A DNA stretch of 64,000 nucleotides from an uncultured Verrucomicrobiae bacterium (GTDB taxonomy: Bacteria > Verrucomicrobiota > Verrucomicrobiia > Opitutales > JABDGR01): contig CAVXVB010000009.1 in the NCBI GenBank assembly GCA_963765205.1, forward strand, positions 1,312,001 through 1,376,000. The letters run 5' to 3'. Made by a program: the position numbers and the translations under genes. Under the pieces are notes generated by a model that was given only the letters and a program-made list of their open reading frames with translations, did not search any database and was not told the DNA's origin. Each line of letters opens with the position of its first letter. The first letter of the stretch is position 1. This document shows positions 23,453 through 24,141 of the stretch, in pieces.

Positions 23453-24141
23453 ATGAATTCCAAAATTGAAGACCTAAGAAAACAAGCGTTCGAACAAATG
23501 CAGCGGGCAGCCGCTGCAATGAAGACGTCCGACGTTGTGCGTTTAACGCCGCTATTGGAACGGCTCGCTAAACTCGAATCTGAAGCGTCGCTGCTTGCGA
23601 CGCAGATTCAAGAGATTGAAGGATTGCTTTCAGGCACTATTATTGCGGTTCCCCGGCAATCATACGTCACGAGCAACAATATCGAGATTAACGGTTCCCG
23701 ACCCAGAAGCGTTCTCACAGCAAATTGAAGATAGCATTAAACTGGCGTGCAATTGGCAGGGAACGGCCGAACGAAGAAATTTGCCATCAGTTTGCTAGTG
23801 GAACCCAAGCGATATTTTTAAGCAAACTTATCACTGTGCTAGGGCCACAGACTGAATCGCAAATTGTTCGTTTTTGCTCGTCACAAGCTACACGCATGTA
23901 TCTTTCAAAGAATCCGGACATAGATCCACATTTCACGAATCGACAAACTAGCGAGGAGTATTCTCGCGCTCGTATCCCCGGCACGGAGTGGTATGTAATT
24001 ACGAATACGAATACAAATACGAAAAAGGCAGACTTGGAAAAGTTGCTGCATTTTCTCAAGTTTTCTAAGGATTTTGCTATAATTGAACAAATCAATAAGC
24101 CGGCCAACGATATACCTGATGAAATGTTGGCGGCGCTCTAA
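23453..24141 (+). CDS. Coiled-coil + SeqA C-terminal-like domain protein (two ORFs, probably one ~229 aa gene frameshifted at ~23708)
   Basis: ORFs 23453..23728 and 23725..24141; TRMYLS and IPGTEWYVITNTNT resemble SeqA TRVYFA and VPGTPYWVITNTNT. Confidence 0.6.

Follow-up and report, generated by a model that had tools for sequence, protein, structure and literature searches.

Does a SeqA-like protein in a verrucomicrobial genome control replication, or does it act on DNA from elsewhere? In Dam-positive Gammaproteobacteria, SeqA is generally regarded as a regulator of replication. The gene considered here lies in an uncultured Verrucomicrobiae bacterium, within a window of 64,000 nucleotides (the whole stretch of DNA that was analysed, with positions counted from its first letter). 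A first-pass annotation had described it as a stand-alone methyl-DNA reader outside Gammaproteobacteria, and the host is indeed placed there by the Planctomycetes/Verrucomicrobia marker TIGR04138, found above its cut-off. We suggest that the SeqA-fold protein likely binds and blocks incoming DNA and does not control chromosome replication. The specific reading that we favour, at a probability of about 0.4, is a nuclease-free, self-regulated binder or blocker of incoming foreign DNA, with the window copy probably acting via methylated GATC.

One gene, split in the assembly

Two overlapping open reading frames, ORF1 (23453-23728, 91 aa) and ORF2 (23725-24141, 138 aa from a TTG codon, its frame open from 23692), occupy the gap that separates dnaK (start 23207, minus strand) from rpiB (24309). 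They diverge from dnaK, starting at 23453 on the plus strand, and are as low in GC as had been noted: 0.49 in the first part and 0.43 in the second, where dnaK and rpiB both have 0.62. The features are collected in Table 1; no RNA holder is listed.

Table 1. Features of the SeqA-like locus and the nearby type I operon, in window coordinates.
Feature	Coordinates	Strand	Basis or remarks
Promoter-like TTGACA (23392-97), 17-nt spacer, TAAGGT (23415-20)	23392..23420	+	sequence; not listed by scanner
Single 229-aa gene	23453..24141	+	split in assembly; likely one-base deletion error
Helical hairpin / predicted coiled coil (~residues 1-62)	23453..23638	+	family N-profile; P0001 model
Variable linker, low-confidence in prediction, contains frame break after 23701	23639..23710	+	P0001 model; alignment
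SeqA-C-fold DNA-binding domain (binding predicted)	23711..24100	+	family-typical extra N-terminal strand and IDW-type motif
TNTNT loop, equivalent to E. coli SeqA T149-T153 (DNA-binding loop, N150 and N152)	24001..24015	+	sequence alignment
REP-like inverted pair	24148..24217	.	halves 24148-24173 and 24192-24217
Type I R-M operon	28923-35344		HsdM, HsdS, EcoEI-like HsdR

The two frames are likely one intact gene, in which an extra base restores the length typical of the family. A contig of run X1 carries one extra C in the C-run after 23701, with no substitutions across the region, at a depth of 4.74 and 31 letters from the contig end; the run is possibly from the source sample. The single 229-aa gene proposed earlier thus stands, while the proposed repair, an extra A at 23707-23708, gives way to a C after 23701. 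Either insertion yields 229 aa; the comparison with the one X1 contig restores the frame and moves the base and its position.

X1 and the assembly differ by two further indels over 19.9 kb (19227 and 16874). X1 has an extra G after 19227, where groEL in the assembly leaves the frame that holds its Gly-Met tail, a tail typical of groEL; the gene (19155-20723, minus strand) is accordingly frameshifted near its 3' end. The indel at 16874, within a 452-aa ORF (16761-18119), is present in both runs compared. groEL and the SeqA-like gene together show that this assembly contains single-base indel errors that break genes, and other split genes in it may be artefacts of the same kind. Directly downstream of groEL lies a low-GC gene for a trypsin-like peptidase (18241-19032, minus strand), another apparent solitary insert.

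The relatives point the same way. A search with ORF2 alone found 76 proteins, the top one of which, P0001, also matches ORF1 (E 2.5e-14 within this set of 76), and a single family profile spans ORF1 and ORF2 in order. Twenty-five of 30 metagenome loci encode one full-length ORF, the remaining five being cut at or near contig ends; one relative, in genome G026, is interrupted by a stop. We therefore consider a real break, which would make the locus a recent pseudogene or a pair of translationally coupled genes, very unlikely. Such a break would fit the TTG start that overlaps the TGA stop (TTGA, 23725-23728), a repair drawn from one low-depth contig, the split copy in G026 and the missing family promoter array described below, but the added C restores family length, the same run corrects groEL, a third indel appears in two runs, and the 30 metagenome relatives are uninterrupted except at contig ends.

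Both halves of the REP-like pair 3' of the gene are where they had been placed. Its core occurs in 12 copies genome-wide, and the pair is probably not specific to the SeqA-like gene.

A SeqA-fold reader behind a predicted helical hairpin

The likeness to the SeqA C-domain, originally seen by eye, is borne out by profile and by predicted structure. ORF2 matches Pfam SeqA (PF03925) at E 1.4e-6 and 28.8 bits (cut-off 25.5), a match confined to positions 62-108 of the 111-position model, its C-terminal half, and matches PDB SeqA at E 0.002. Aligned as a family against E. coli SeqA, the relatives reach an hhalign probability of 93% (E 2.7e-7). The AF2 model of the 149-aa open frame (23692-24138; pLDDT 93.5) superimposes best on the SeqA structures of E. 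coli (3fmt; Z 9.2, rmsd 2.9, 105 residues) and V. cholerae (3sk7; Z 8.6, rmsd 2.9, 101 residues), and the five best Foldseek matches of the model are all SeqA chains, none at E 0.001 or better. Third among the structural matches is the SLED domain of Scml2 (PDB 2mem; Z 6.9, rmsd 3.6, 103 residues), with the rest below Z 5. SLED comes from a eukaryotic chromatin protein and shares 7% identity; with Z under 8 the likeness of the model to it may be a common arrangement, and we regard it as a possible distant link. As the first-pass annotation had it, no nuclease or methylase is fused, none being found among the Pfam domains of ORF1 and ORF2.

The loop that had been singled out is identical to E. 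coli T149-T153. In SeqA, N150 and N152 form the DNA-binding loop, and a double Ala mutant loses binding (PMC2691817, in part). Most of the family differs here: over the 99 rows of the family alignment, exact TNTNT occurs once, in the window gene, and both Asn are kept in three. The N150 position is His in 67 rows and Asn in 25, whereas T149 is kept in 97 and K156 in all 99, so that most members have a THS loop where the window gene has TNT.

A coiled coil in place of SeqA-N had also been proposed, and the prediction of a helical N-terminus agrees with it. The model of P0001, the closest whole relative, has helices at residues 2-21 and 25-62, then a linker (pLDDT below 50 at 67-71 and 76-81), then the SeqA-fold domain. 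ORF1 has no SeqA-N match, and PF17206 (SeqA-N) has none anywhere in the host genome. On the family N-profile ORF1 scores 50.8 bits (shuffle maximum 9.8), the only match in the host genome, and of the 22 proteins found by a hairpin-only search all 22 carry the SeqA-fold domain. The hairpin is likely an oligomerisation module; a homodimer prediction of 0.23 (mark 0.42) is evidence neither way, and a fold search of the hairpin returned generic helical pairs only.

Other identities for the hairpin were tried. A UVR docking motif (UvrB/UvrC) was rejected at an hhalign probability of 0.7%, with real N-termini scoring no better than reversed ones on a profile of the host genome's six UVR motifs. Comparison with the N-terminal part of P0032, the Mrr_N protein, gave no support for kinship (0.9 bits), and two of five other class-level hairpin matches (G993 and G281) were judged chance coiled coils.

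A sporadic family that shares its reader with restriction enzymes

Alignment A1 takes in 47 of the 76 proteins, selected for a length of ~190-235 aa, a helical N-terminus and the lack of any further domain. Elsewhere among the 76 the reader is fused to GmrSD_C (9), Mrr_N (1), HSDR_N (1), RHH (2; P0013 and P0041) and a helicase-associated domain (1). GmrSD (DUF262-DUF1524) type IV enzymes and Mrr_N / HsdR-N proteins thus carry a homologous C-terminal SeqA-like reader; unlike them, the window family lacks nuclease, ATPase and methylase domains, and no nuclease gene is conserved beside it. The hairpin, for its part, also occurs with a different partner: at L063 and L068 (27.2 and 21.8 bits) it sits on another, shared domain, 41% identical between the two, whose Atlas model matches B3 at the naming bar, with a weak EcoRII-N lead. 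The L063 gene (L063:1486-1995, genome G508) lies beside a ParE toxin gene and the L068 gene (L068:37-855, G735) beside a Phd antitoxin gene.

Fusion of RAMA to SeqA domains in restriction contexts has been described by Iyer et al. (PMC4738411, in part). RAMA and HARE-HTH, predicted m6A readers treated in the same paper (in part), are likewise mobile reader modules of restriction systems; the main-text parts compared do not describe a stand-alone hairpin-SeqA protein. No Pfam match to RAMA or HARE-HTH is listed for the window ORFs or the family, and RAMA is absent from the fold lists.

In a quick, weakly supported tree, where 7 of 75 branches reach 95 or above, GmrSD-fused and hairpin readers intermingle, and the window subclade lies beside a GmrSD-fused group with an SH-aLRT of 90, which is not firm; given this support, we claim neither a donor nor an order of events. 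The family is under purifying selection in both domains: across 20 genes the median dN/dS is 0.16 (0.07-0.35; 9 usable of 190 pairs, dS 0.03-1.2), and hairpin and reader are alike in their low dN.

Members are rare: among 401 genomes of the phylum two have one, among 401 of the order five do (one B3 variant included), and among six congeners none, several of these being incomplete. A scan of genome contigs with profile A7 gave two loci, in a Verrucomicrobia subdivision 3 MAG and a Limisphaerales MAG, so the taxonomic range is poorly sampled. Phage and plasmid records gave no match, two patterns run on viral contigs no confirmed relative, and viral folds no match at E 0.001, while PHROGs gave two single weak matches. 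Word-index protein searches, which are insensitive, found nothing with ORF2 and three matches with alignment A1. Searches for related loci with alignments A1, A3 and A4 turned up no conserved stretch in some of the collections. Atlas clusters near P0001 are unnamed, NCBIfam gives family members weak SeqA scores only, and PADLOC 2.0 yields 0 families at E 1e-5 for both window ORFs, P0001 and P0025. No description of the family appeared in the titles and abstract starts searched, which covered few subscription papers; the term 'SeqA-like' occurs once each in PMC10354927 and PMC11019786. This hairpin-SeqA-fold family is apparently undescribed and sporadically spread.

Several other SeqA-like proteins came to light. 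L003:1342-1878 (G008) encodes a 179-aa protein of a different lineage with a strong SeqA-C match (E 6e-21), flanked by an SNF2-like gene and DUF4391 in what looks like a defence locus of a DpnI-positive genome. L004 (G030 C30:70164-70460) encodes a non-gammaproteobacterial SeqA-like protein whose short N-terminus looks, by eye, ribbon-helix-helix-like. L007:1381-2046 (G241) is a distant member with a different helical N-terminus, and a Dam-like methylase gene and a nuclease-like gene lie directly downstream.

AC arrays over the promoters of relatives

The promoter attributed to the window gene stands in part: both hexamers and a 17-nt spacer are present, but the -10 hexamer matches at only 3 of 6 positions and the promoter scanner passes over it. 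It lies 61 nt before the ATG, against 31-39 nt from TTGAC to the start codon in most relatives, a distance that would fit a leaderless promoter in the latter.

The promoters of most relatives are overlapped by non-palindromic repeats ending in AC, T/A-rich before the AC and with T after it. The last 45 nt of 24 non-duplicate loci contain 130 ACs against 52.7 in shuffles (maximum 74 of 1000), two of the ACs in an array belonging to the -35 and -10 boxes. Exactly 8 nt separate 52 of 106 AC-to-AC pairs, and spacings of 7-8 nt make up 61%, where dinucleotide shuffles give 14% (at most 24.5% in any of 500). Chains of at least four ACs occur at 20 of 26 loci, 16 of the 26 falling in one cluster, and at 0 of 33 TTGAC-led AT-rich control regions of the host genome. 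Taking one locus per 50% cluster (nine representatives) still gives a sum of 35 against a null mean of 19 and maximum of 26. The AC-array promoter of this family is a new observation. On several of its contigs the host genome also has unrelated tandem repeats with a 7-nt unit that includes ACT.

The array is absent at six of the 26 loci (L009, L033, L037, L059, L060 and L067), and is not evident at the window gene promoter. Presence follows the loop: copies without the loop His (L059, L060, L067 and the window gene) lack the 8-nt AC chain in 4 of 4 cases, while copies with His have it in 20 of 23, kin among them not being independent. The array is likely a self-repression operator of family members. 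Since it covers their own promoters, most relatives may have a target different from that of SeqA and possibly unmethylated.

These features recall the xenogeneic silencers H-NS, MvaT, Lsr2 and Rok, which combine oligomerisation helices, a linker and a small DNA-binding domain. The family shares this layout, an AT-rich motif and likely autorepression, and differs in having an unrelated reader fold and in being rare rather than lineage-wide; none of the four silencer families has a Pfam match in the window ORFs or the 76 relatives. A methylation-blind, self-repressing regulator or silencer-like nucleoid protein, working in the mode of H-NS, MvaT or Rok, would recognise AT-rich motifs and adjust the expression of horizontally acquired genes, without acting on phages directly. 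We hold this to be possible if doubtful. The architecture fits, the motif is AT-rich in GC-rich hosts, some members occupy a fixed housekeeping site (see below), two versions are RHH-fused and the loop varies; against this, the reader is otherwise found on restriction enzymes and is exchanged for a restriction-type fold resembling B3/EcoRII-N, the order-wide count and the empty congeners are unlike a core nucleoid protein, and no silencer family has a Pfam match.

Methylated GATC, a possible non-self mark in the host

What would a TNTNT loop read in this cell? A search for dam (TIGR00571) in the host genome (92% complete) found none, nor were DpnII or SeqA_N found, while a full-length DpnI is encoded (E 7e-64 to 4esj). 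Cleavage by DpnI severs both strands at fully methylated GATC; hemimethylated sites receive only a nick when the enzyme concentration is low (PMC3874153, in part). With DpnI present and dam not detected, methylated GATC would here be non-self. GATC itself stands at 0.69 of expectation in the host genome and the densest run of eight spans 198 bp.

The host has many R-M genes, further methylases among them, and its single PF02086 (D12-class) match is PD-Lambda-5_B-like. This methylase (L001; G000 C9:46980-50135) has an unannotated 331-aa gene upstream and an rRNA dimethylase gene adjoining. The DpnI gene (L074:370-1137; G000 C9:41.4-42.1 kb) is directly behind an N6/N4 methylase gene. Two other words are scarcer than GATC, GTAC at 0.23 and GTCGAC at 0.15 of expectation, which suggests restriction sites.

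The foreign-DNA sensing that the first-pass annotation had raised draws some support from this combination, tempered by how common DpnI is among the genomes of the host's family. The host of the closest relative (G007) is also DpnI-positive with dam not found, but DpnI occurs in 4 of 7 other genomes of the host's family, among them G004, G006 and G008, which lack the gene, and in 10 of 151 of the order. Finding gene and DpnI together in two kin genomes is thus weak evidence. Dam-like genes are present in four other hosts of the gene (above the cut-off in G241, G539 and G1007, below it in G933); DpnI was not found in three of them and has a partial match in G1007. Testing across the family showed no association with either DpnI or dam.

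Could the protein be SeqA proper, sequestering the replication origin of its host? With SeqA as known from E. coli and V. cholerae (PF03925 and PF17206; 1lrr, 1iu3, 3fmt, 3sk7) it shares the C-terminal fold and, in the window copy, the loop; the order of parts is also the same, an N-terminal domain being followed by a flexible linker and then the reader. Unlike SeqA, however, the window protein has a predicted helical hairpin instead of SeqA-N and ~20% identity, its host has DpnI and no dam was found, the family is sporadic, and THS loops and promoter arrays prevail among its members. Relatives scanned with the SeqA equivalog NF008389 (cut-off 185) fall far short, P0001 at 17.6 bits and 6 of 47 members with weak matches. 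The window protein is therefore like SeqA in outline and outside it by its N-terminal domain, its host and the equivalog score of its relatives. Together with the GATC deficit and the six congeners without the gene, this leaves origin sequestration highly improbable, for all that fold and loop are those of SeqA.

A solitary gene in an accessory slot

The earlier suggestion of a link to the type I R-M locus is not supported. That locus is 4.8 kb away, beyond four housekeeping-type genes (rpiB, lpxB, an oxidoreductase and a glycoside hydrolase), and no type I gene is among the scanned neighbours of 30 metagenome loci, many on short contigs. The interval between hsdS and hsdR holds a complete gene of the RhuM family (31827-33029) as well as a short fragment that resembles RhuM (31595-31984).

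The family is solitary, with no partner gene recurring across the 30 metagenome loci in a scan of 129 ORFs that includes several near-duplicate loci and many short contigs. Many loci lie between housekeeping genes (hisF, polA/purK, ppk2, pta), generally outside defence islands, and at four (L013, L026, L030, L095) hisF is upstream, at one fixed site. Toxin-antitoxin (TA) genes occur within 1 kb at L009, L013, L019, L021, L063 and L068, and integrase, relaxase or transposase genes within 6 kb at L011, L016, L034 and L035; L029 has a type II methylase nearby, and L038 an Avs4-like protein next to it. In the congener G004 the order lpxB-rpiB-dnaK is kept and the gap is filled by ParE and an addiction-module antitoxin, so the dnaK-rpiB slot takes small accessory modules; in G003 a nucleotidyltransferase gene is upstream of rpiB and dnaK is outside the locus.

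Two further explanations meet this evidence. The hairpin might dock on a separately encoded nuclease (GmrSD, type I HsdR, DpnI or UvrC), making the protein a detachable targeting subunit. The fusions of the reader to GmrSD, Mrr_N and HSDR_N, the host's wealth of R-M genes and the position of L007 directly upstream of a methylase and a nuclease-like gene are what such a subunit would lead one to expect, but no partner nuclease recurs in the 30 loci and the hairpin is unlike UVR, and we think it improbable. We take an equally sceptical view of selfish or near-neutral cargo with TA-like persistence, toxic in excess or stabilising its carrier element: it shares insertion slots with TA modules, and excess SeqA disturbs replication and division (PMC2691817, in part), but no cognate second gene recurs, no toxin domain was found, and both domains are under purifying selection.

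A proposed role in blocking foreign DNA

The foreign-DNA binder that we favour would work in steps. The hairpin would oligomerise and allow SeqA-like cooperative binding to clusters of a short motif. Members would repress their own leaderless promoter through the AC array, and such self-repression would keep protein levels low until foreign DNA offers competing sites. Bound oligomers would then obstruct replication or transcription of the foreign DNA. Finally, the window copy would read m6A-GATC, in this cell a mark of foreign DNA only, including the hemimethylated product of the first replication round. This last step, suggested by the E. coli loop, the missing promoter array and the DpnI-positive host without detected dam, is the weakest of the four, and we regard it as rather doubtful.

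For blocking speak a reader common to restriction enzymes and exchangeable (for B3) behind the same hairpin, the accessory dnaK-rpiB slot, TA or mobile genes near some loci, purifying selection, the AC array over the promoters of most relatives, and two hosts, that of the window gene and G007, with DpnI and no dam found. SeqA itself forms foci on hemimethylated phage DNA after the first replication in Dam-minus hosts (PMC12707154, in part), which fits the same picture. Several observations pull the other way. PADLOC has no match and the loci are not, as a rule, in defence islands; the four loci at the fixed site behind hisF would suit a settled regulator; DpnI is also present in kin without the gene, and dam-like genes turn up in four other hosts. 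The loop varies across the family. The array is missing at six loci, 16 of the 26 loci compared belong to one cluster, two of its ACs lie in the -35 and -10 boxes, and the host genome has unrelated repeats containing AC. The frame repair comes from one contig of depth <5, with the G026 copy split by a stop.

A bolder version of blocking is a single-gene, nuclease-free immune family with a constant hairpin, swappable SeqA- or B3-fold readers and members that are each titrated by an operator array at their own promoter. In it, methylated GATC would have become the target of the window copy, which would support DpnI by coating phage DNA left hemimethylated by its first replication. We consider this full scheme unlikely. 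Were it true, SeqA-style sequestration would serve as immunity, possibly near the state from which replication-control SeqA arose.

Whatever its exact role, the SeqA fold here belongs to a selected stand-alone family in unrelated bacteria, one that trades places with the readers of restriction enzymes. Its promoter arrays are candidate binding sites, and the THS and TNT loop variants track their presence; arrays and loops together make the specificity of non-canonical SeqA domains testable, including those on GmrSD-type nucleases. If the blocking model is true, this would be defence by coating DNA, not by cutting it.
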